A stretch of DNA of 24,431 nucleotides. Origin: a virus (taxonomy: Duplodnaviria > Heunggongvirae > Uroviricota > Caudoviricetes). The position numbers were made by a program, and so were the translations under genes. This document shows, in pieces, positions 5,839 to 19,137 of the stretch. The stretch lies in the IMG/VR virus record IMGVR_UViG_2663762939_000013, one strand, 5' to 3'. The notes below the pieces were generated by a model. It had not been told where the DNA came from, made no database searches, and saw only the letters and a list, made by a program, of their open reading frames with translations. How positions within the stretch are numbered: position 1 is the stretch's first letter; every line of letters begins with the position of its first letter.

Positions 5839-6005
5839 TTAAAGTTCATGTGCCATCTGGTCTTTTTCGGCACAAGCTTCACTGCAATATTTTCTCGGTT
5901 CGTCTTTTGATAAAATCCCGTGCATGAAGTGAAGCATTCTTTCAATAGCTTTGCTTTCTTCAACGTCTTTTTTGCAAAGGTGGTAAGCACATTTTATTTT
6001 CTTAG
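5839..6005 (-). pseudogene. ydaE: 5'-truncated ydaE-like zinc-binding small protein; start codon lost at the IS5 junction
   Basis: Minus-strand frame ...KKIKCAYHLCKKDVEESKAIERMLHFMHGILSKDEPRKYCSEACAEKDQMAHEL-stop (stop at 5839-5841) runs open into the IS5 terminal repeat with no start codon; Cys/His spacing suggests zinc binding. Gene symbol is a positional guess (racC-ydaE order in K-12). Confidence 0.5.
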
Positions 6006-7200
<1,195 letters not shown>

Positions 7201-7767
7201 ATAGGTATGTATGACTTGCATGGAAGTTTTATTCATTCGTTTTTTCTTGCCAGCTCCATGCTCACTGATAATGGTTTAGCTACGCAGGATTATGCAAGTT
7301 GGCCCACGCACACGATAGTGTTTTTGCTGTTGTCAAGTTTCTTTGGGGGATGTATAGGTTCAACTTGTGGTGGAATTAAGTCACTTCGATTTCTTATACT
7401 TTTCAAACAAAGCAAACACGAGATAAATCAGCTTTCTCATCCCAGAGCGTTGTTGAGTGTAAATGTAGGAGGGAAGATAGTTACAGATCGTGTAATGAGG
7501 TCTGTATGGAGTTTCTTTTTTCTTTATACTCTCTTCACGGTGTTTTTTATACTGGTGTTAAATGGTATGGGATATGATTTTCTTACATCATTTGCAACAG
7601 TGGCTGCATGTATTAATAATATGGGATTAGGTTTTGGGGCTACTGCATCGTCATTCGGAGTGCTTAATGACATTGCAAAATGTTTAATGTGCATAGCTAT
7701 GATTCTTGGTCGCCTTGAAATTTATCCTGTTATTATATTGTTTTCAGGTTTTTTTTGGCGCTCCTAA
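7201..7767 (+). pseudogene. trkG: 3' fragment of trkG (Trk K+ uptake protein, TrkH paralogue), C-terminal 188 codons only
   Basis: Frame opens exactly at the IS5 boundary; membrane-protein translation with the GGCIGSTCGGIK motif typical of TrkH/TrkG; visibly AT-rich; no N-terminal part present. Confidence 0.8.
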
Positions 7768-7853
7768 TATATGGCTGATTTATAATTGTGAGTTTAATAT
7801 TATGTTGACTCACTCATTGATCCAATACCTAACTTTACCAGCAACACCTCCGT

Positions 7854-7889
7854 CCCCAGTAGCACTGGCTGCTGGGGTGCGTTTTATTC
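7854..7889 (+). terminator. Rho-independent terminator-like hairpin downstream of the trkG fragment
   Basis: CCCCAG (7854-7859) / CTGGGG (7872-7877) stem with 12-nt loop, followed by TGCGTTTTATTC. Confidence 0.45.
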
Positions 7890-7904
7890 ATAAAGCAAGG
7901 CTGT

Positions 7905-8696
7905 ATGAGCGAGAAATTAAAGATAGTCTATCGCCCATTACAAGAATTGTCACCGTATGCGCACAACGCCAGGACGCACAGTACTGAGCAGGTGGCACAA
8001 CTGGTAGAAAGTATTAAGCAATTCGGCTGGACTAATCCGGTGCTGATTGACGAAAAGGGCGAAATTATTGCGGGTCACGGTCGTGTTATGGCGGCTGAAA
8101 TGCTCAAAATGGATTCTGTTCCGGTCATTGTTCTGTCTGGCCTGACGGATGAGCAGAAAAAGGCGTACCGCCTGGCAGATAATCGCCTGCCGATGAATGC
8201 TGGCTGGGATGAAGATCTGTTGCGGATGGAGCTGTCGGACCTAATCAATGCTGATTTTGATGTCTCCCTGACAGGCTTCATCCCGACAGAAATTGATGAA
8301 CTGTTGACGGATGTTTTGCCCGGTACAGGAAATGAGGAGGAGCCGTATACGACGAAAATTGATACGCCTGTTTATGAGCCGTCGGGCGGTAAACCGGATA
8401 TCAGTGAACTGTACGACGATACGAAAACTCAGGAGCTGATCAGCCGGATACGTTCGGCGTCCCTTGAGCCTGATATTGAGAAATTCCTCCTGTGTGCGGC
8501 AGAACGTCACACGGTGTTTAATTTCAGCAGAATTGCGGACTATTACGCTCACGCCCCCTCTGAAATTCAGTGTTTTTTCGAGGAGTCGGCGCTGGTGATC
8601 ATTGATTATCAGCAGGCTATTGAAAATGGATTTGTCCGGATGACGCAGCGCATGGTGGAGATCATGCATGGTGGTGAGGAGGAGGAATATGCGTGA
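7905..8696 (+). CDS. ParB-like nuclease domain protein (ParB/Srx N-terminal domain), 263 aa; positional equivalent of K-12 Rac ynaK
   Basis: N-terminus KIVYRPLQELSPYAHNARTHSTEQVAQLVESIKQFGWTNPVLIDEKGEIIAGHGRVMAAEMLKMDSVPVIVL is a classic ParB N-terminal domain pattern; stop codon overlaps start of next gene (ATGCGTGA). Confidence 0.8.
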   Translation: MSEKLKIVYRPLQELSPYAHNARTHSTEQVAQLVESIKQFGWTNPVLIDEKGEIIAGHGRVMAAEMLKMDSVPVIVLSGLTDEQKKAYRLADNRLPMNAGWDEDLLRMELSDLINADFDVSLTGFIPTEIDELLTDVLPGTGNEEEPYTTKIDTPVYEPSGGKPDISELYDDTKTQELISRIRSASLEPDIEKFLLCAAERHTVFNFSRIADYYAHAPSEIQCFFEESALVIIDYQQAIENGFVRMTQRMVEIMHGGEEEEYA

Positions 8697-9621
8697 TGAT
8701 TTTTGCGCCTTTATTCTGACTCACGGGCGACCGGACAAAGTTCTGACTTACCGGACGTTGCGTCGTGCTGGCTATACCGGGAAAATTTTTATCGTTGTTG
8801 ATGATGAAGATAAGACACGGCATCAGTACATGGCTGAATTTGGTGAACAGGTGCTGGTGTTTTCCAAAGCCGATATCGCCAGTCGTTTTGACGAAGCCGA
8901 TAATTTCTGTGACCGCCGCTCAATTTTTTACGCCCGTAATGCCTGTTTCGACCTGGCAAAACTGGTCGGGTGTAAATACTTCATTCAGCTCGATGATGAT
9001 TATCACGAGTTCCAGTTTCGGGTGGATCGCAACTATGACCAGGCCTATTTTCCGATAAGGAAACTGGATGCGATCCTTTCTGAAATGCTGGCGTACTACG
9101 AATCAATACCTGCTCTTTCCATCGCTATGTCGCAGGGCGGGGATTTTCTTGGTGACAATGGCGGCCATGCTTCGTGGGTGAAACGCAAGGCAATGAACAG
9201 CTTTATCTGTTCGGTTGATCGACCGTTCTCATTCATGGGGCGCATTAACGAGGATGTGAATACGTACACGAATCTCGGTCGCTGTGGTGAATTGTTTATG
9301 ACGATCGGTGCTGTCCAGTTAGGGCAGAAACAGACGCAGAAAAACAGCGGCGGAATGACCGAGCTGTATCTGGATTCCGGAACCTACGTTAAAAGTTTTT
9401 ACTCCGTCATGTATGCGCCGTCGTGCGTAAAAATCTCACTGATGGGTGCCAGCCATAAACGCATTCACCATCAGGTCACCTGGAACAACGCTGCAGTAAA
9501 AATCCTTCACGAAAAATACAGGAAGAAGACACCCTGCATATCAATGGGGGTGACAAATGATTCCGTATTCGAAAGTCGAGTCTCTGGCAGCGTGCCGGAT
9601 GACTGCACAACAAATCGCTGA
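8689..9621 (+). CDS. Uncharacterised 310-aa protein, translationally coupled to the ParB-like gene; possible GT-A-like transferase (tentative)
   Basis: ATG at 8689 preceded by GGAGGAGGAA; motifs FILTHGRPDKVL, IFIVVDDEDK and YFIQLDDDYHEF spaced like the N-terminal strand / DxD signatures of GT-A fold enzymes. No fold assignment was possible here; function unknown. Confidence 0.7.
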   Translation: MRDDFCAFILTHGRPDKVLTYRTLRRAGYTGKIFIVVDDEDKTRHQYMAEFGEQVLVFSKADIASRFDEADNFCDRRSIFYARNACFDLAKLVGCKYFIQLDDDYHEFQFRVDRNYDQAYFPIRKLDAILSEMLAYYESIPALSIAMSQGGDFLGDNGGHASWVKRKAMNSFICSVDRPFSFMGRINEDVNTYTNLGRCGELFMTIGAVQLGQKQTQKNSGGMTELYLDSGTYVKSFYSVMYAPSCVKISLMGASHKRIHHQVTWNNAAVKILHEKYRKKTPCISMGVTNDSVFESRVSGSVPDDCTTNR

Positions 9622-9808
9622 CGTTCTGGATGTTGATCTGAACCGACTGAAAGAAAATCGGGAAGCAATGACAGATTTTTATGCGGCCATCCGTAAGGGC
9701 AGAGCGAAAGGTGAAGCCGAGTTACGAGCGGCATTGTTTAAGCTTGCCAGAAAAGGGGATGCCTTTGCTCTGCGCGAACTACTCAGGGTGGATAAAAATC
9801 AGGACTAA
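9557..9808 (+). CDS. Small helix-turn-helix-like protein, 83 aa (possible packaging or regulatory DNA-binding protein)
   Basis: ATG at 9557 preceded by GGGGGTGA; sequence ...MTAQQIADVLDVDLNRLKENREAM... resembles an HTH; overlaps 3' end of the upstream gene by 65 nt (alternative start at 9599 gives a 23-nt overlap); stop 3 nt before TerS start. Confidence 0.5.
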   Translation: MIPYSKVESLAACRMTAQQIADVLDVDLNRLKENREAMTDFYAAIRKGRAKGEAELRAALFKLARKGDAFALRELLRVDKNQD

Positions 9809-9811
9809 CTG

Positions 9812-10906
9812 ATGAGCAGACCGGACTGGGGGGCGTTGCAGCAGGAGTATATTGCTGAATACACCCGCTCCGGTATATCTCCGGTGGCATGGTGTGAAGC
9901 AAGGGGACTGAATTACGCAACAGCCCGTCGTTACATCAAAAAAACTCCGAAAAATGCGCAGACAGAAATGTGCAAAACTGCGCAAAAAAGTGCGCAGAAA
10001 AAATCTGCGCAGACTGCACAAAAGCGGAACGAAAAATCTCAGGAAAAAAAGCCAGTATTCGATGCGGGCCTGAATGAGGGCGACGCGGAGGAATTTTCGT
10101 TCTGTCCCGATGAATTCGGCATTTCTGACCAGCAGGCTAAGTTTGCGATGCTTGTTGCTCAGGGTAAAAAGCCGACAGAGGCGTACCGACTAGCCGGTTA
10201 TGAGGGGCAAGGTGCGACAGCTAATAGCAACGCCAGTCGTATGCTTAGAAATGCCAGGGTTTTTCGCGCTATCAGCTACTTCCGCAATCAGTACCAGAAA
10301 CGCTATACCGCAGACCTGGATTTACTAGTGAGTCAGTTGATGGCCATTGTCCTGGCCGACCCCAATCAGCTTGCACAATTTCGCCGTGTTAACTGCCGTT
10401 ATTGCTGGGGCGAGAATCATCTCTACCAGTGGCGCGATATAGCAGAATTCGACAAGGCAGCGGCGCAGGCTTCCAGAGATGGCAAACCCGAACCGGAATA
10501 TGGAGGCCTCGGCTTTGTTGATAACGCCATACCCAATCCGGACTGCCCGAAGTGCTGCGGTGAGGGAACGGGACAGCTTTATATGGCTGATACCACTCTG
10601 CTTGATGGGGATGCGCGGCAATTATATGCAGGGGCAAAATTCGGAAAATTCGGCGTTGAGATCCTGCTGGAGGATAAGGCTGCCGCCCGGCGTGAATTGT
10701 TGCGTTTGCTTTCTGCTGGCGGGGCTTTATGTGCAGATAAGCGGCTACAGGAACTGGAAATTGAACGGCGCAGAATGGAAAACCAGAAGCTGCGCAAAGA
10801 GATCGAAACGGTGGAAGATAATGAACATCCCCAGCCTGTGGCGATCAATATTAATGTGGTTGATGCCAGAGTAAGGAGTGATGAAGATGATCTCTCCGAC
10901 GCTTAA
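9812..10906 (+). CDS. Terminase small subunit (Terminase_2/P27-like core) with N-terminal extension, CxxC...CxxC zinc ribbon and C-terminal coiled coil, 364 aa
   Basis: Core QQAKFAMLVAQGKKPTEAYRLAGYEGQGATANSNASRMLRNARVFRAI matches the conserved terminase small subunit pattern; NCRYCWGENH...DCPKCCGEG zinc-ribbon-like cysteines; immediately upstream of and overlapping the large terminase. Confidence 0.8.
   Translation: MSRPDWGALQQEYIAEYTRSGISPVAWCEARGLNYATARRYIKKTPKNAQTEMCKTAQKSAQKKSAQTAQKRNEKSQEKKPVFDAGLNEGDAEEFSFCPDEFGISDQQAKFAMLVAQGKKPTEAYRLAGYEGQGATANSNASRMLRNARVFRAISYFRNQYQKRYTADLDLLVSQLMAIVLADPNQLAQFRRVNCRYCWGENHLYQWRDIAEFDKAAAQASRDGKPEPEYGGLGFVDNAIPNPDCPKCCGEGTGQLYMADTTLLDGDARQLYAGAKFGKFGVEILLEDKAAARRELLRLLSAGGALCADKRLQELEIERRRMENQKLRKEIETVEDNEHPQPVAININVVDARVRSDEDDLSDA
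9955..10020 (+). repeat. Array of six TGCGCA/TGTGCA/TGCACA palindromic hexamers inside the TerS gene (candidate pac/TerS-binding repeats; also encodes an AQK peptide repeat)
   Basis: Hexamers start at 9955, 9969, 9979, 9991, 10006, 10015 (spacing 9-15 bp); protein here reads NAQTEMCKTAQKSAQKKSAQTAQK. Confidence 0.5.
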
Positions 10907-12188
10907 TGTGCCTCAGGCGCGATTTCTTTCAATGCCCCATAAATTTAAAGCCTATATTGCTGGTTTTGGCTCGGGCAAAACATGGGTTGGGTGTGGCGGC
11001 ATATGCAAGGGGATTTGGGAGCATCCAGGTATAAATCAGGGATATTTTGCGCCAACGTATCCCCAAATTCGCGATATTTTTTACCCTACAGTGGAAGAAG
11101 TTGCTGCTGACTGGGGATTGAACGTAAAAATTAATGAGGGAAATAAAGAGGTTCACTTTTATTACGGACGCCAGTATCGGGGAACCACTATCTGCAGATC
11201 GATGGAGAAGCCACAAACGATCGTCGGTTTCAAAATTGGTAATGCGTTGGTGGATGAACTGGACATTTTGCCGAAGGAAAAAGCCAGAACGGCGTGGCGC
11301 AAGATAATTGCACGTATGCGTTATAAGATTGATGGACTTCGCAACGGTATTGACGTTACAACCACGCCGGAAGGATTCAAATTTGTCTACGAGCAGTTTG
11401 TTAAAGCCGTGCGTGAAAAAACAGAGCTGGCCTCACTGTATGGTCTGGTGCAGGCATCTACTTTCGATAATGAAAAGAACCTGCCAGCAGATTACATTCC
11501 TTCGCTTCTTGAATCATACCCTCCAGAGCTGATTAAAGCCTATCTTCGAGGACAGTTTACTAACCTGACAAGTGGTACTGTTTACCATCAGTTTGACCGG
11601 AAACTGAATAATTGCGAAGAAGTGGAGCAGCCAGGGGAGCCGATTTATATTGGGATGGATTTTAACGTTGGAAAGATGGCGGGAATCGTCCATGTGCTGC
11701 GTTTGGGGCTTCCATGTGCGGTAACTGAAATCATCAATGCCTACGATACGCCGGATATGATCCGCATCATTAAAGAACGCTTCTGGCTGTATGATGGGAA
11801 TGATTACCGGAAAGTGAGGGAAATTTATATTTATCCAGATGCTTCCGGGGATTCCAGAAAATCAAGTAACGCAAGTACGACGGATATAGCCCAGCTTAAG
11901 CAGGCTGGTTTTAACGTTGTGGTGAACAGCTCGAACCCGCCAGTAAAAGATCGCGTTAACTCAATGAATGCAATGTTCTGCAATGCCAATGGTGAGCGTC
12001 GCTATAAAGTTAATGTGAAGCGTTGCCCGTTATATGCCGAATCTCTGGAGCAACAGGTCTGGGATGAGAAGGGGGAGCCTGATAAAAAATCTGGCAATGA
12101 TCACCCGAATGATGCCGGAGGTTATTTCATCGTTAAGCAATTCCCTATTGTCAAACCGACCGGAAGAGTCACATCACTTCGGATTTAA
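10887..12188 (+). CDS. Terminase large subunit (ATPase/nuclease)
   Basis: Walker A motif AGFGSGKTW near N-terminus; ATG at 10887 has AAGGAG 8 nt upstream (in-frame GTG/ATG at 10878/10881 also possible); follows TerS; about 430 aa. Confidence 0.9.
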   Translation: MISPTLNVPQARFLSMPHKFKAYIAGFGSGKTWVGCGGICKGIWEHPGINQGYFAPTYPQIRDIFYPTVEEVAADWGLNVKINEGNKEVHFYYGRQYRGTTICRSMEKPQTIVGFKIGNALVDELDILPKEKARTAWRKIIARMRYKIDGLRNGIDVTTTPEGFKFVYEQFVKAVREKTELASLYGLVQASTFDNEKNLPADYIPSLLESYPPELIKAYLRGQFTNLTSGTVYHQFDRKLNNCEEVEQPGEPIYIGMDFNVGKMAGIVHVLRLGLPCAVTEIINAYDTPDMIRIIKERFWLYDGNDYRKVREIYIYPDASGDSRKSSNASTTDIAQLKQAGFNVVVNSSNPPVKDRVNSMNAMFCNANGERRYKVNVKRCPLYAESLEQQVWDEKGEPDKKSGNDHPNDAGGYFIVKQFPIVKPTGRVTSLRI

Positions 12189-12190
12189 TT

Positions 12191-13597
12191 ATGGCTGATA
12201 TATCAACACCCAACCTCGACTATAACGATATGCTGGAGGCGTGGGATATTAACGACGCACTGATGGGCGGTACGCTTGAAATGCGCAGGCAGGGGGAAAA
12301 TTATCTCCCAAAATGGCCTAACGAAGATGAAGACGCTTATAAAAAACGCCTGTCTGTGGCTACGCTACTTCCTGTGTATGAAGAAAGCATCAAGCAAAAT
12401 ATTGGGCGCATATTTGCAGAGCCGACAGTATTGAGTGAGGAAACGCCGGCAAAAATCAGGGAATATGCAGAAAATATCGACATGGAGGGGAGCCGACTGG
12501 ATGTGTGGGCGCAGCAATTTTTCAGCCTCGCATTTCAGTATGGTGTGGCACATGCGCTGGTGGACTATCCACGAACGGATATGAAAGAGATTCGGACAAA
12601 AGCCGATGAAAACGCGGCCGGTGGTCGTCCGTACGTTACGATGCTGAATCCACGCCAGGTTATTGGATGGAAATCGAAAGTTGAAAAAGGGAAAGTTGTT
12701 CTCACTGATTTGCGTATAAAAGAGGTCATCATTATTGATGGTGATGATTTCGGGCAGAAGAAGGTGGAGCAGATCCGCCATATTATGCCCCGTCGAGTTG
12801 AAATTTATCGACGTAGCGAAGGCACTAATGGCGAATCTGTCTGGACGCTTCATGAGTCATGGAATACCAGCCGTGATGATATTCCTCTGGTAACACTGTA
12901 CACGAAGAAAACAGGATTTATGCGTGGTACACCGCCATTGCTTAATCTTGGCTTGCTGAATATCAAGCACTGGCAAAGCCAGAGCGAGCAGGACAATATT
13001 CTTCATGTTGCCCGCGTTCCATTGCTGGTGGCCTACGGGCTGGACAGGAATGAAGAACTGACGGTTGGTGCATCCACCGCTACGATTTTTGAGGACAGAA
13101 CAAAAAATGGCCTCGAATATGTTGAACATAGTGGCGCAGCGATAGAATCTGGCGAAACATCACTTGAGAAGCTGGAAAATCAGATGCGTCATGCCGGCGC
13201 TAAACTTCTGCGTGCTGAAAATACATCCACCAAATCTGTTGATCAGACTAATGAAGAGCGAATGCAGGAAAACTCGCCGCTTTATACAATGGCGAACTCC
13301 CTCGAAGATGCCCTCGATAATATTCTCCAGATAATGGCGGAATGGATCGGAGAGAGTTGCGGTGGCAATGTGGATGTGCGCACTGAACTGGATGTATCTG
13401 CCCAGGTGTTTGACTCATCCTCCGCGCTGGCTGTTCAGTCATTGCGTCAGGGCGGTGATATACGTCAGATTGATGCGGTTCGGGTGTTGCAGGCGTTGAA
13501 ATTTATCGATCAGGATTCCCGTCCAGAGGAAGTGATCGATGAATTAAAAAATCAGAGTGTAATGCTGATGGAAATCAATGATGCAAACCGTGAATGA
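12191..13597 (+). CDS. Portal protein, 468 aa
   Basis: Large ORF immediately after terminase large subunit (start 2 nt after its stop); size and position typical of portal; no domain-level confirmation. Confidence 0.75.
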   Translation: MADISTPNLDYNDMLEAWDINDALMGGTLEMRRQGENYLPKWPNEDEDAYKKRLSVATLLPVYEESIKQNIGRIFAEPTVLSEETPAKIREYAENIDMEGSRLDVWAQQFFSLAFQYGVAHALVDYPRTDMKEIRTKADENAAGGRPYVTMLNPRQVIGWKSKVEKGKVVLTDLRIKEVIIIDGDDFGQKKVEQIRHIMPRRVEIYRRSEGTNGESVWTLHESWNTSRDDIPLVTLYTKKTGFMRGTPPLLNLGLLNIKHWQSQSEQDNILHVARVPLLVAYGLDRNEELTVGASTATIFEDRTKNGLEYVEHSGAAIESGETSLEKLENQMRHAGAKLLRAENTSTKSVDQTNEERMQENSPLYTMANSLEDALDNILQIMAEWIGESCGGNVDVRTELDVSAQVFDSSSALAVQSLRQGGDIRQIDAVRVLQALKFIDQDSRPEEVIDELKNQSVMLMEINDANRE

Positions 13598-14693
13598 ACG
13601 GCTGCGTGATGAATCAATTGCTCATGCAGTCTGGATATCCCGCTATAGCACTGGCGTGGCTGCCAGAATGGTGAAAATACTGAATGACAGCGATGCGGAA
13701 CTTACTGCTCGCCTGCTGATAGCACTGGACAGCCTCGATCCAGGTAGTTTTACCGTTAAGCGCCTGGAGTCACTTCTGGCGAGCGTCAGAGAGGTTAACC
13801 GCACTGCTATTAACAGCATGTTTACCAGTCTCTCCGGAGAGCTGAACGAGCTGGCAATTTATGAGGCTGGTTATCAGTTAAGTCTGTTTGATTCTATGCT
13901 ACCTGATTTTGTTGCTGATGTTCACCCTCTGGTTGGTATCTCTCCTGATGCACTTTATGCCGCTGCAATGGCGCGACCATTCCAGGGACGACTGCTCAGT
14001 GAGTGGGCCTCAGATCTTGAAGCGGATCGGCTCAGACGCATAACAAATACAGTGCGTCAGGGTTTTTTGCTGGGGGATACCAATGAGCAGATCGCAAGAA
14101 AAATTCGGGGACATGTCAGTAAGGGATTTCAGGATGGTGCATTGCAGATGAGCCGGGCTAATGCGGCCAGCATTGCAAAAACAGCGGTTGGACATCTTGC
14201 TGCTACTGCCCGTGAGAGTTTTGCCAGCGCGAATAATGATTTGATTAAGGGTAAGCAATGGTTATCAACGCTTGATAATCGTACTACGCCACAATGTCGA
14301 ATCAGGGATCGCCTCAAATATACGCTGAATAATAAACCTGTAGGTCACAGCGTGCCTTATTTGCAGGGGCCGGGAAAAATTCATTTCTGCTGCCGCTCAA
14401 CGGAAACGTTCATTCTGAAATCAGCGAAGGAACTGGGTATTGATGTTCGCGATATTTCCCCGGCTGAGCGGGCCAGCATGGATGGCGTGGTGGCCGGAGA
14501 TACAACCTACAGGGAATGGTTTTTGCGTCAGCCTTACACCAGACAAAAACAGATTGTGGGGGAAACCCGAGCAAAGCTGATTCGGGATGGTGGTATGTCG
14601 CCAGATGAATTTTACACCGATAAAGGCGAATGGCTGACGCTGAAGCAGCTCCGTGAGCGTGATGCACAGGTATTCAGAAAAGCAGGGATTTAA
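13578..14693 (+). CDS. Head morphogenesis / minor head protein (SPP1 gp7 or Mu F-like by position), 371 aa
   Basis: Overlaps portal 3' end by 20 nt; position portal-then-minor-head-then-scaffold-then-capsid is typical of protease-less head modules. Confidence 0.6.
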   Translation: MMQTVNERLRDESIAHAVWISRYSTGVAARMVKILNDSDAELTARLLIALDSLDPGSFTVKRLESLLASVREVNRTAINSMFTSLSGELNELAIYEAGYQLSLFDSMLPDFVADVHPLVGISPDALYAAAMARPFQGRLLSEWASDLEADRLRRITNTVRQGFLLGDTNEQIARKIRGHVSKGFQDGALQMSRANAASIAKTAVGHLAATARESFASANNDLIKGKQWLSTLDNRTTPQCRIRDRLKYTLNNKPVGHSVPYLQGPGKIHFCCRSTETFILKSAKELGIDVRDISPAERASMDGVVAGDTTYREWFLRQPYTRQKQIVGETRAKLIRDGGMSPDEFYTDKGEWLTLKQLRERDAQVFRKAGI

Positions 14694-14712
14694 ATAAATC
14701 ATTTATTACAAC

Positions 14713-14740
14713 AGGCTACCTTCGGGTGGCCTTTTTTATT
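14713..14740 (+). terminator. Rho-independent terminator after the head morphogenesis gene
   Basis: AGGCTACC-TTCG-GGTGGCCT hairpin (one G-U pair) followed by TTTTTTATT, 20 nt after the stop codon. Confidence 0.7.
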
Positions 14741-14797
14741 GCTGCGATCCGGATGGTGAGCAGCGTAACTGTCGGAAGACTTAAACCAGGTACTAAT

Positions 14798-15562
14798 ATG
14801 AAACTGAAAACGGTCGAGATTAACGGAAAACAATACGCAGAAATTGATACTGCTGGCCTGCCAGTTTATGTGCACGACGATGGTAAAGAAATTGGCTTCG
14901 ATGCACCGCTGGCGACAAAAAAAATTACAGAGCTTAATGGCGAGGCAAAAAATCATCGCCTGGCTAAAGAAGCTGCAGAGGAAAAACTGGCTAAGTTTGC
15001 CGCTATCGAAGACCCGAAGAAGGCGATCGAGGCACTGGAAATGCTGTCAAAAATCGACCAGAAAAAGCTGCTCGATGCGGGACAGGTTGACCAGGTTAAG
15101 GCAGAAATTACGAAAAATTTTCAGCAGCAATTAGATGAAGAAAAGCAACGCTCTCAGATGCTGGAGAAGCAGCTTTACGATTCTATGATTGGCGGTAGTT
15201 TTGCGGGTTCAAAATATATTGCCGATAAAATTGCGATCCCGGCAGATTTATTACAAGCCCGCTTCGGGCAGGCATTCAAAGTGGAAGAAGGGAGGATCGT
15301 TGCTTATGACGCTTCCGGCAACAAAATTTATTCCCGCGCGAAGCCTGGCGAACTGGCGCAGTTTGATGAGGCGCTGGAGTTCCTTGTCGAAAATTACCCT
15401 CAGAAAGACTACATCCTGAAAGCCAGTGGCAACAATGGCGGCGGCTCCCGTCCGACACAGCATGATATTGGTCAGAAAACGATGAAACGCTCTGCTTTTG
15501 ATGCACTGGATGTTGCAGGTAAGCAAAACGCATTGAAAGACGGTATCACAATCGTTGATTAA
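14798..15562 (+). CDS. Scaffolding protein (putative), 254 aa
   Basis: Highly charged, alpha-helical-looking (K/E/A/Q rich) protein immediately upstream of the major capsid gene; ATG at 14798 chosen after the terminator. Confidence 0.65.
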   Translation: MKLKTVEINGKQYAEIDTAGLPVYVHDDGKEIGFDAPLATKKITELNGEAKNHRLAKEAAEEKLAKFAAIEDPKKAIEALEMLSKIDQKKLLDAGQVDQVKAEITKNFQQQLDEEKQRSQMLEKQLYDSMIGGSFAGSKYIADKIAIPADLLQARFGQAFKVEEGRIVAYDASGNKIYSRAKPGELAQFDEALEFLVENYPQKDYILKASGNNGGGSRPTQHDIGQKTMKRSAFDALDVAGKQNALKDGITIVD

Positions 15563-15660
15563 CACATTTGTCAGCTTCCGGATGGGAGCTGGTGTCAGGG
15601 CTGGATAGCTCATTACTCCATCTATTCACAATTACGCAAATTTTTAAGGAATATTTAATT

Positions 15661-16800
15661 ATGGCTGGAAATACCCTGACCGGGTTGATCCCGACTATTT
15701 ATACCGCCCTGGATGTTGTATCCCGTGAGCAGGTAGGTTTTATCCCTGCGGTAGCAAAAAACGCAAAAGCTGACGCCGCAGCAAAAGATCAGACGGTAAC
15801 CGCGCCAGTTGCGCCTGAGGCGAAAACCGAAGATATCGTACCGGGGCCGTCAGCTCCGAATACCGGTGATCAAAATATTGGCACTGTTGATGTAAAAATT
15901 ACTAAATCCAAAATGGCACCGGTTAAATGGAATGGTGAAGAACAACTGGCTCTTGGCCCTTCAGGGACTTACAACACCATTCTGGCTGATCAGTTCAAGC
16001 AGGCTTTTCGCGCCCTTGCAAACGAGGTTGAGGCTGATCTTGGTGCGTTGTATTTCGGTGCTTCCCGCGCCGTGGGAACCGCAGGGACAACGCCGTTTGG
16101 TGTTAAAGATGATCTTTCTGATGCTGCTCTGGCTCGTCAGGTTCTGGAGGATAACGGCGCACCGACAACCGATCTGCAGATGGTGCTTGGCTCCACTGCC
16201 ATTGCTAATTTGCGCGGAAAACAGTCTGTATTGTTTAAAGTGAATGAATCCGGCACTGAACAGCTACTGCGTGAGGGCGTGTTGGGGCGTCTGGAGGGAT
16301 TCAATATTCACAGTTCGGCAGGTGTGAAACGAGCGCCAAAGGTTGCTGCAACTGGTTATCTCGTGAATGGAGAGAAAAAAGAAGGCGATGTTCTTATTTC
16401 CATTGATACTGGTTCGGGGAGTATTTCTGCAGGTCAGATTGTTACGTTCGCTGGTGATCCGAATCAGTATGTTGTGGCAGCAGCGACCAGCAATCTGATT
16501 ACTCTTGCAGCGCCCGGACTGCGTCAGGATCTGGCCGATGATACTGCCATCACAGTTGTTGGGGCCTTTACTGCAAATATGGCGTTTGATCGCAACGCGT
16601 TTCTGCTGGCATCCCGTACTCCGGCAATGCCGGAAGGTGGCGATAATGCTGATGATGTAATGAATGTTACGGACCCGATTTCAGGGATTACGTTCCAGAT
16701 TGCACTGTATCGTCAGTATCGCCAGGTGCGCTATGAAGTTGGACTGGCATGGGGTGTTTCATCAGTGAAGCCGGCACATGGTTGTCTGATTCTTGGTTAA
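15661..16800 (+). CDS. Major capsid (coat) protein, 379 aa
   Basis: ATG at 15661 with AAGGAA upstream; about 380 aa, G/A/T-rich composition typical of coat proteins; followed by a strong terminator hairpin. Confidence 0.75.
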   Translation: MAGNTLTGLIPTIYTALDVVSREQVGFIPAVAKNAKADAAAKDQTVTAPVAPEAKTEDIVPGPSAPNTGDQNIGTVDVKITKSKMAPVKWNGEEQLALGPSGTYNTILADQFKQAFRALANEVEADLGALYFGASRAVGTAGTTPFGVKDDLSDAALARQVLEDNGAPTTDLQMVLGSTAIANLRGKQSVLFKVNESGTEQLLREGVLGRLEGFNIHSSAGVKRAPKVAATGYLVNGEKKEGDVLISIDTGSGSISAGQIVTFAGDPNQYVVAAATSNLITLAAPGLRQDLADDTAITVVGAFTANMAFDRNAFLLASRTPAMPEGGDNADDVMNVTDPISGITFQIALYRQYRQVRYEVGLAWGVSSVKPAHGCLILG

Positions 16801-16810
16801 ACATTCAAAC

Positions 16811-16830
16811 GGGGCTTCGGCCCCATTTTT
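16811..16830 (+). terminator. Rho-independent terminator after the capsid gene
   Basis: GGGGC-TTCG-GCCCC hairpin followed by ATTTTTAA, 11 nt after the capsid stop codon. Confidence 0.7.
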
Positions 16831-16842
16831 AATGGGGGGCAT

Positions 16843-17019
16843 ATGGCCGGATTAACTAAAGAGCAAAGAGCACAGCGTGAAGCCGCACAAAAAACGCAAA
16901 TTGAGTTAGTGGTTATGGTGACCGATTATCAGATGTTTCCCGGCGCACCAACTATCGCTAATGTTCATCCTGATGAAGTTGACAACTGGAAGGCTATGGG
17001 CTGGAAAACTCAGGAGTAA
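16843..17019 (+). CDS. Small hypothetical protein, 58 aa
   Basis: ATG at 16843 downstream of GGGGGG; ends at TAA 17017-17019, 3 nt before the next gene start and overlapping its CAGGAG Shine-Dalgarno; below the size cutoff of the supplied ORF track. Confidence 0.35.
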   Translation: MAGLTKEQRAQREAAQKTQIELVVMVTDYQMFPGAPTIANVHPDEVDNWKAMGWKTQE

Positions 17020-17022
17020 CAC

Positions 17023-17418
17023 ATGATCACTTACGTGACCTGTGATGACGTTGATAATGCGTTTGGGAACGCCTGGACGAGTGAGAACGCTAAAAATAAA
17101 GCTGTTTTAATGGCTAATGCCTGGCTTAATGGCTTCAACCTGAAAATTAACCCATCCCGTATTCCGGAAGAGGTAAAACTTGCGGGAGCATATGCAGCCA
17201 GAATTGCCTCATTCGGTAAGTTGTTTCAGCAGAAAAATGATTCTGGCGTTGTTATCAGTAAAGCCGTGTCGGCTGACGGGGTCAGTGTATCGAAATCATT
17301 TTCTGAGTTGCCAGCAAACAGCACTGCATTGCTTGAACCCGATTTACAGCTTGCGATAGCACTGCTGAAACAGTACGGACTTAGTCGCTCACAAGTCAGG
17401 GTTGTGAGGGGGGGATAA
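17023..17418 (+). CDS. Head-tail connector / adaptor protein (gp6-like by position), 131 aa
   Basis: Strong RBS CAGGAG; stop overlaps start of next gene (TAATG); position after capsid gene. Confidence 0.6.
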   Translation: MITYVTCDDVDNAFGNAWTSENAKNKAVLMANAWLNGFNLKINPSRIPEEVKLAGAYAARIASFGKLFQQKNDSGVVISKAVSADGVSVSKSFSELPANSTALLEPDLQLAIALLKQYGLSRSQVRVVRGG

Positions 17419-17715
17419 TGGGGCTTCGTGAAGAGATTCAGTCAGAGGTTGCCGCTGCTTTTGATGAGGATTTAGCGGACGCCGTGAGTGATTTTTCTGG
17501 TTCTTACGTTACGCACCGGCACTGGGATCCTGTGACGGAAACTGGCGGCGAATCCACCGCAATCTATACCGGGCGAGGCGTGTTGACACGTTATAAGCTG
17601 GGCAGAATTGATGGGATTAATATTTTGCATGGTGACCTTAAATTAACCGCTCTGGTATGCGAGGTTACGGATAAACCAGCTGTCGACCATATTATTGAGA
17701 TTTATGATCCTGTAT

Positions 17716-17720
17716 CAAGG
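17716..17720. repeat. IS2 target-site duplication, left copy (CAAGG)
   Basis: 5-bp CAAGG immediately left of the IS2 end at 17721; identical copy at 19052-19056. Confidence 0.9.
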
Positions 17721-17731
17721 TGGATTTGCCC

Positions 17732-18637
17732 CTATATTTCCAGACATCTGTTATCACTTAACCCATTACAAGCCCGCTGCCGCAGATATTCCCGTGGCGA
17801 GCGATAACCCAGCGCACTATGCGGATGCCATTCGTTATAATGCTCGAACGCCTCTGCAAGGTTCTTTGCTGCCGTTAACCCGTCTGGTTTGGGCATGATA
17901 CTGATGTAGTCACGCTTTATCGTTTTCACGAAGCTCTCTGCTATTCCGTTACTCTCCGGACTCCGCACCGCCGTGTTCTTCGGTTCAAGTCCCAACATCC
18001 GGGCGAACTGGCGTGTTTCATTAGCCCGGTAGCATGAACCATTATCCGTCAGCCACTCCACTGGAGACGACGGAAGATCGTTGCCGAAGCGGCGTTCCAC
18101 CGCTCCCAGCATGACGTCCTGTACTGTTTCACTGTTGAAGCCGCCGGTAGTGACCGCCCAGTGCAGTGCCTCACGATCACAGCAGTCCAGCGCGAACGTG
18201 ACACGCAGTCTCTCTCCGTTATCACAGCAGAACTCGAACCCGTCAGAGCACCATCGCTGATTGCTTTCTTTCACGGCCACTCTGCCTGTATGTGCCCGTT
18301 TCGATGGCGGTACAGCAGGTTTTCGCTCAAGCAACAGCGCATTCTGGCGCATGATCCGGTAAACACGTTTGGCATTGATCGCAGGCATACCATCAAGTTC
18401 TGCCTGTCTGCGAAGCAGCGCCCATACCCGACGATAACCATACGTTGGCAGCTCTCCGATAACATGGTGTATACGGAGAAGCACATCCGTATCATCAGTG
18501 TGACGACTGCGGCGGCCATCCATCCAGTCATCGGTTCGTCTGAGAATGACGTGCAACTGCGCACGCGACACCCGGAGACAACGGCTGACTAAGCTTACTC
18601 CCCATCCCCGGGCAATAAGGGCGCGTGCGCTATCCAC
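17732..18637 (-). CDS. insD: IS2 transposase InsD (orfB), 301 aa
   Basis: Translation [37 protein letters not shown]... ending ...NRCLEI recognised as IS2 InsD; overlaps insC, consistent with the frameshift fusion arrangement. Confidence 0.95.
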
Positions 18638-18960
18638 TTTTTTGCCCGTCCATATTCAACGGCTTCTTTGAGGAGTTCATTTTCCATCGTTTTCTTGCCG
18701 AGCAGGCGCTGGAGTTCTTTAATCTGCTTCATGGCGGCAGCAAGTTCAGAGGCAGGAACAACCTGTTCTCCGGCGGCGACAGCAGTAAGACTTCCTTCCT
18801 GGTATTGCTTACGCCAGAGAAATAACTGGCTGGCTGCTACACCATGTTGCCGGGCAACGAGGGAGACCGTCATCCCCGGTTCAAAGCTCTGCTGAACAAT
18901 TGCGATCTTTTCCTGTGTGGTACGCCGTCTGCGTTTCTCCGGCCCTAAGACATCAATCAT
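18595..18960 (-). CDS. insC: IS2 InsC (orfA) HTH protein, 121 aa
   Basis: [56 protein letters not shown]... recognised as IS2 InsC. Confidence 0.95.
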
Positions 18961-19051
18961 CTGTTCTCCAATGACTAGTCTAAAAACTAGTATTAAGACT
19001 ATCACTTATTTAAGTGATATTGGTTGTCTGGAGATTCAGGGGGCCAGTCTA

Positions 19052-19056
19052 CAAGG
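19052..19056. repeat. IS2 target-site duplication, right copy (CAAGG)
   Basis: 5-bp CAAGG immediately right of the IS2 end at 19051. Confidence 0.9.
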
Positions 19057-19137
19057 CAGTTACAACGATACGAGGTAATTACAGCAAGTGTAGATCCTTC
19101 CGCATCAGTTTACTCTATCCAGTTAAGGAGAGCGTAA

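Follow-up and report, generated by a model that had tools for sequence, protein, structure and literature searches.

A simple IS2 insertion in the predicted head-closure gene of a Rac-type cryptic prophage of Escherichia coli

The gal operon and the ampC fusion promoter, the latter reportedly described by Jaurin and Normark in 1983, are the classic cases of insertional polarity and activation by IS2. The termini of the element comprise imperfect inverted repeats of 41 bp (IRR) and 42 bp (IRL), with the IRL promoter designated P-IRL, and transposition proceeds via a minicircle equipped with a junction promoter, Pjunc (PMC3299598). IS2 fusion promoters have been documented at ampC, acrEF and neo (PMC9330008); their outward -35 element resides in IRR, as does the minicircle junction promoter Pjunc (PMC9330008, PMC3299598).

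Hc1, the head-closure protein or stopper, seals the portal channel once packaging is complete and offers the surface on which the tail docks. The SPP1-like 'Type 1' necks of siphophages are defined by the gene order Ad1-Hc1-Ne1-Tc1 (PMC4362835); in stoppers, a β-barrel core bears a flexible loop by which the channel is plugged (PMC9701221). The stretch of DNA analysed here, hereafter the window (24,431 nucleotides), contains a neck module of this type in which the predicted Hc1 gene is interrupted by a complete copy of IS2 (Table 1). At least three further disabling lesions are present in the surrounding prophage, and the IS2 insertion, which would inactivate Hc1, therefore almost certainly represents one episode in the neutral decay, within one E. 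coli lineage, of a cryptic prophage.

Table 1. Window coordinates of the interrupted neck module, the IS2 copy within it and neighbouring features.
Feature	Position	Strand	Remarks
IS5	6003-7200		Flanks TTAG (left) and ATAG (right); not a duplication
Ad1 head-tail adaptor	17023..17418	+	PHROG 493, E=1.1e-47; stop overlaps the Hc1 start
Predicted Hc1/stopper gene, 5' part, codons 1-101	17418..17720	+	Identical to WP_000524260.1 codons 1-101
Fusion ORF, 129 aa	17418..17807	+	101 native residues, followed by 28 read from the IRR of IS2
CAAGG target-site duplication, left copy	17716..17720	.	Present once in empty-site genomes
IS2, complete	17721..19051	-	1331 bp; transposase genes run antisense to the late operon of the phage
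IS2 IRR, 41 bp	17721..17761	-	IRL/IRR alignment; leftmost part of the element in window coordinates; outward is leftward, antisense to Hc1
IS2 orfB, 301-aa frame	17732..18637	-	DDE/rve catalytic part of the OrfAB transposase
A6G (AAAAAAG) slippery site	18637..18643	-	-1 programmed frameshift, orfA to orfB
IS2 orfA, 121 aa	18595..18960	-	Regulator/repressor
IS2 IRL, 42 bp	19010..19051	-	Contains the inward-pointing transposase promoter; abuts the downstream phage genes
CAAGG target-site duplication, right copy	19052..19056	.	Direct sequence reading
Predicted Hc1 gene, 3' part, codons 102-127 plus TAA	19057..19137	+	Cut off from its start codon
Tail completion/Neck1 (Ne1)	19138..19518	+	PHROG 169, E=2.6e-55
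Tail terminator (Tc1)	19515..19907	+	PHROG 179, E=9.7e-41; Pfam PF13554
Tail tube gene	from 19934		Pfam match
Tail assembly chaperone	20945-21406		PHROGs match

The identity of the element, called a 1331-bp IS2 in an earlier note made by reading the sequence, is confirmed by several lines of evidence. The IS2 copies of E. coli K-12 match it at 100% identity over all 1331 bp. The orfA and orfB reading frames occupy the 0 and -1 frames and are joined at the A6G site, and their products score above the cutoffs of the NCBIfam models for (i) the IS2 repressor TnpA (NF006928; 276.4 bits, cutoff 229) and (ii) the IS2 transposase TnpB (NF006918; 727.6 bits, cutoff 597). Pfam rve matches the called transposase gene, and RefSeq attaches the label 'programmed frameshift' to the IS2 transposase. 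The termini are imperfect inverted repeats that align with a single gap and preserve the inner block ATCACTTAA. The copy is full-length, no visible defects were seen in it and, having the same sequence as active copies, it appears to be active.

The closest full-length relative, a prophage located beside ttcA in strain GN02461 (locus L003), served as the reference and displays the empty site. Positions 7201-17720 of the window align with reference positions 27342-37861, and positions 19052-23826 with reference positions 37857-42631; the two alignments share exactly 5 bp, CAAGG, which occurs as a single copy in the reference. The repeat in the window is exactly 5 bp long, with base 6 differing on each side. 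A 5-bp match between flanks has by itself a chance of about 1/1024, and the empty site provides stronger evidence for a true insertion. Rearrangement alongside the insertion was rejected because the flanks are colinear with the empty-site prophage and differ from it by 3 SNPs in 15.3 kb. In many genomes the flank match spans exactly 1865 bp (3201 - 1336), and a 300-bp probe finds the empty site uninterrupted in 733 of the 5,426 complete E. coli genomes, including 613 at ≥99% identity; a 300-bp probe for the left junction matches none of the same 5,426 genomes. No sequence evidence contradicting a simple IS2 insertion was seen. The alignment against strains lacking the insertion, proposed in the earlier note as a check, thus upholds its description of a simple insertion flanked by perfect 5-bp CAAGG repeats, with colinear flanks, an overlap of exactly 5 bp and one CAAGG in the empty site.

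The insertion is typical for IS2: five further copies each measure 1331 bp and are accompanied by a 5-bp duplication, with target sequences that are unrelated and motif-free. For some IS2 copies located in fimbrial genes, megablast matches extend 27-36 bp into the flank of the Hc1 insertion; this likeness is weak, an AT-rich stretch of about two-thirds identity, and was put down to matches extending by chance, IS2 sites numbering in the thousands. The left CAAGG copy ends at a codon boundary, as had been noted (17418..17720 comprises 303 nt, i.e., 101 codons), and the right copy starts off a codon boundary; such placement has a 1-in-3 chance and carries no evident significance. As a member of the IS3 family, IS2 would have integrated by the copy-out/paste-in pathway via a minicircle, a staggered 5-bp cut at CAAGG having let it into the predicted Hc1 gene of a Rac-family prophage next to ttcA. 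The insertion splits the gene after codon 101 and leaves a 129-aa fusion product.

Removal of IS2 and one copy of CAAGG joins 17418..17720 to 19057..19137 and yields a 384-nt ORF encoding 127 aa, with its TAA at 19135-19137 directly preceding the start codon (ATG, 19138) of the gene downstream, precisely the reconstruction that had been proposed. The rebuilt protein is identical at 127 of 127 positions to the intact homologue WP_000524260.1, the comparison that the earlier note had singled out as the one capable of revealing further rearrangement, and the intact protein is also found at 100% identity in deposited phage records, e.g., vB_EcoS-473R12. At the other end of the gene, the ATG overlaps the stop codon of the upstream gene (TAATG, 17416-17420). 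Because of this overlap and of the TAA/ATG junction, the three genes are tightly packed when intact, as in translationally coupled phage late operons. The fusion protein lacks the last 26 native residues, corresponding to two predicted C-terminal β-strands (residues 103-113 and 119-126); with a barrel missing two strands, the truncated Hc1 would be unable to work as a stopper.

The head-closure assignment draws on three sources. First, the rebuilt protein matches PHROG 161, 'head closure Hc1', with E=1.5e-28, residues 1-127 aligning to positions 1-120 of the 120-position profile. Second, the neck genes of the window follow the order Ad1-Hc1-Ne1-Tc1 and are located between the capsid and tail tube genes. 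Third, an AlphaFold2 model, made on a 98%-identical homologue with a 36-sequence alignment (mean pLDDT, 81.7), comprises an N-terminal α-helix and six β-strands, residues 60-71 forming a disordered loop. The best fold matches retrieved from the PDB with Foldseek are almost all neck or connector chains, including the Pam3 neck, phiXa, the T1 stopper, the lambda neck, the R4C stopper and SPP1 gp16, and they are moderate, with E values of 3e-4 to 1e-2 and a TM of about 0.5. The rebuilt protein matches no Pfam family at E≤0.01, PF05521 included, and no NCBIfam family, and the search of PDB sequences returned nothing beyond chance-level matches to designed repeat proteins. The call rests on profile, gene order and fold class because a Pfam match is lacking and the fold matches are moderate; together, these three sources support, at the level of family and fold, the view, also taken in the earlier note, that the interrupted gene is a head-closure gene.

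The window starts at intR, its own attachment site being outside view, and is colinear with the full-length GN02461 prophage next to ttcA at 99.9% identity. The genes common to both comprise intR, xisR, rcbA, ralR, recT, recE, racC, ydaE, trkG, ynaK and ydaY, and the prophage is assigned on this sequence to the Rac family of lambdoid elements, of the ttcA-sited type. In addition to the IS2 insertion, the prophage displays the following lesions: (i) at IS5, the 15.3 kb between reference positions 12005 and 27342 are missing from the window, a block that comprises kilR, sieB, the repressor region, the ydaS-V replication genes, the antitermination and lysis genes and the 5' part of trkG, and whose deletion would be explained by recombination between two IS5 copies; (ii) the tail tube gene contains an amber codon (CAG-to-TAG at 20789-20791, Q286*), with the loss of 34 residues, a codon also present in the independent scaffold L006; and (iii) an IS3-family element, which continues to the end of the window, interrupts the tape-measure gene with one of its ends at 23826/23827, about 650 of the 1077 codons preceding the break. 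The prophage is defective, and the IS2 insertion is one of at least four disabling events. The IS2 insertion did not in itself put a working phage out of action; it could have come first among the four lesions. The claim of an inactivating insertion in the virion assembly pathway is supported, with the caveat that the prophage is also defective through the IS5-associated deletion, the amber codon and the tape-measure insertion.

The late region of the same prophage has received IS2 or IS2-like insertions in three other strains, located in the tube gene (025542-1), in ydaY (M18) and in the spacer between ydaY and the tape-measure gene (TUM9868). In all four late-region insertions the transposase is antisense to the operon. 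The recurrence of independent insertions in the same region and orientation is what would be expected if the insertion had been selected for silencing, by polarity, the virion genes of a domesticated Rac-like prophage, or if IS2 displayed a regional or orientation preference. This reading is nevertheless very improbable: four of four insertions in one orientation have chance odds of about 1 in 8 and are not significant, the duplicated targets share no common motif, and the prophage is disabled anyway by the large deletion. Neutral decay remains the preferred explanation.

The consequences of the insertion for the downstream neck and tail genes can be read from the arrangement of the reading frames. 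The gene end is now 1.3 kb away from its start, the TAA-ATG junction no longer follows a translated frame, and translation ends at 17807, leaving 1.3 kb before the next start codon at 19138. A late transcript entering IS2 antisense to its genes would remain untranslated for about 1.3 kb, which would expose the neck and tail genes beyond the element to polarity. An untranslated stretch of transcript is the standard condition for Rho-dependent polarity. For the tail genes, polarity is more likely than activation, which is not expected, because the outward -35 element resides in IRR, here facing upstream and antisense.

The earlier note had suggested instead that outward-reading sequences of IS2 might alter the expression of the downstream tail genes. 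As a mobile promoter, IS2 would drive or modify the expression of the neck and tail genes beyond it; the element is intact, and the formation of fusion promoters by IS2 at ampC, acrEF and neo (PMC9330008) gives the proposal a precedent. The orientation of this copy speaks against it: IRR (17721-17761), with its outward -35 element, is directed leftward into the 5' fragment of the gene, in antisense, where the best flanking -10 candidate at 17-bp spacing is CTTGAT, with three of six matches and no A at position 2; towards the tail genes the element presents IRL, and the IRL promoter is directed inward. A consensus scan of positions 17300-19300 likewise found no sigma-70-like promoter site on the + strand. 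Promoter activity of IS2 on the tail genes is thus very unlikely.

The fusion protein is on record as KME64538.1/WP_075288400.1, retrieved by exact-protein look-up, and is encoded on 14 contigs, among them two NCBI assemblies, GCA_001032735.1 (scaffold KQ088931.1) and GCA_964300605.1, and several ENA metagenome assemblies; one of these contigs, according to its cluster record, measures 4.6 Mb. The contigs carrying the fusion protein are 99.97-100% identical to the window. The independent NCBI scaffold L006 contains both junctions at 100% identity, and the left junction is present in several independent metagenome contigs; exact-junction scans of the GTDB representative genomes and of the JGI metagenomes did not find it. 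The insertion allele is thus already present in public databases. Since it is found in several assemblies, it is fixed in a lineage represented in more than one sample, and is no laboratory event. The estimate 'probably recent' fits the identity of the element to other IS2 copies, the 3 SNPs in 15.3 kb of flank and the absence from all 5,426 complete genomes (0/5,426), 'recent' being a relative term for an allele common to several assemblies. Short-read assemblies are commonly broken or mis-joined at IS elements, and the junction occurs in none of the 5,426 complete genomes, yet an assembly artefact, with a repeated IS misplaced by the assembler, has a practically negligible probability given the perfect 5-bp duplication of a sequence that is single-copy in empty-site genomes, the L006 scaffold with both junctions and the several metagenome contigs with the left junction.

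The locus represents ordinary prophage decay, with no new kind of element, and combines known IS2 behaviour with known siphophage neck architecture. Its importance beyond annotation is small, as a textbook case of IS-mediated prophage decay. In practical terms, (i) the appropriate annotation for the 129-aa product of 17418-17807 is that of a disrupted head-closure gene, not of a separate protein; (ii) the name 'glutamate 5-kinase', widely given to this protein family in public databases, is wrong, the family being one of phage head-closure (stopper) proteins; and (iii) the insertion could be used as a lineage marker of the E. coli clone harbouring the IS2 allele.

Compared with IS2 of E. coli K-12 (IS3 family), the present copy shares the sequence, the inverted repeats, the orfA/orfB arrangement, the A6G site and the 5-bp duplication, and differs solely in location. 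With the classic cases of IS2 polarity and activation, the gal operon and ampC, it shares the placement of IS2 within a polycistronic operon; unlike in the classic activation at ampC, the -35 element of IRR faces away from the downstream genes. Compared with the full-length Rac relatives at ttcA, the window has lost the kilR-to-lysis block through the IS5-associated 15.3-kb deletion, whereas, relative to the Rac prophage of K-12 as usually described, it keeps the terminase-to-tail module. The predicted Hc1 protein shares with the stoppers SPP1 gp16, lambda gpFII and T1 stopper the PHROG 161 profile and the Ad1/Ne1/Tc1 setting, and its model shares their small β-rich fold and flexible loop; it differs from the solved stoppers in sequence, with 9-18% identity and a TM of about 0.5, and in that the present gene is broken after codon 101.

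Beyond the IS2 insertion in the head-closure gene, comparison of the window with L003, the near-identical full-length Rac-like prophage of strain GN02461, discloses a large deletion, located at the position of an IS5 copy. At this position, ~15.3 kb of the full-length prophage are absent, equivalent to L003 12006-27341 and comprising kilR, sieB, the repressor region, the genes for replication and lysis, and the 5' part of trkG. The IS5 copy is flanked by different sequences, TTAG on the left and ATAG on the right, and the loss looks like either a deletion next to IS5 or the product of recombination of one IS5 copy with another. This loss is by itself enough to render the prophage non-inducible.

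Features of the window and of related loci in other E. coli strains
Feature	Location	Remarks
IS5 copy	window 6003-7200	at the site of the ~15.3-kb loss
Portal gene	window 12191-13597
Tail tube gene	window 19934-20896	320-aa protein in the reference prophage
Tape-measure gene	window 21878 onward
IS3-family element, end only	window 23827-24431	transposase on the minus strand; terminal sequence TGAACCGCCCCGGG...
IS2 or IS2-like insertion, strain 025542-1	L001 5175-6505	tube gene
IS2 or IS2-like insertion, strain M18	L012 3534-4864	ydaY
IS2 or IS2-like insertion, strain TUM9868	L013 3942-5272	ydaY-tape measure spacer

The late region carries further differences. The tape-measure gene is interrupted after ~650 of its 1077 codons by the end of an IS3-family element, which contains the C-terminal rve part of a transposase and may resemble the end of IS629/IS1203; since the window terminates within this element, the interruption may be either a simple insertion or a deletion. 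In the tail tube gene, a nonsense change with respect to the reference prophage, CAG to TAG at 20789-20791 (amber, Q286*), shortens the protein by 34 residues, and the same amber codon occurs in the independent scaffold L006. The portal gene displays one missense difference at 13359, with residue 390 being Cys in the window and Tyr in the GN02461 prophage, one of just three SNPs across the 15.3 kb of late region common to both.

Immediately upstream of the window IS2, a stretch of 27-36 bp (17685-17720) bears a weak, AT-rich resemblance to the sequences that flank IS2 in the fimbrial genes of other strains (L004 and L005), probably a product of coincidence, given the thousands of sites, or of a slight preference for target structure. 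Just beyond IRR, still within native gene sequence, lies a promoter-like site on the minus strand (17691-17718; TTGATA, 16-nt spacer, AATAAT; 10/12 matches), antisense to the 5' fragment of Hc1; such sites occur in the region at chance level.

Most NCBI and UniRef entries of the 127-aa phage head-closure family (P0009-P0134), to which the protein encoded by window 17418-17720 + 19057-19137 belongs, are named 'glutamate 5-kinase', as is the truncated IS2 fusion product WP_075288400.1; no NCBIfam or Pfam model backs this name, which appears to be a propagated misannotation.

Finally, in three other E. coli strains, IS2 or IS2-like elements have independently entered this prophage's late region, each copy comprising 1331 bp with 5-bp duplications, and in all three the transposase is antisense to the late operon, the orientation also adopted by the IS2 of the window.
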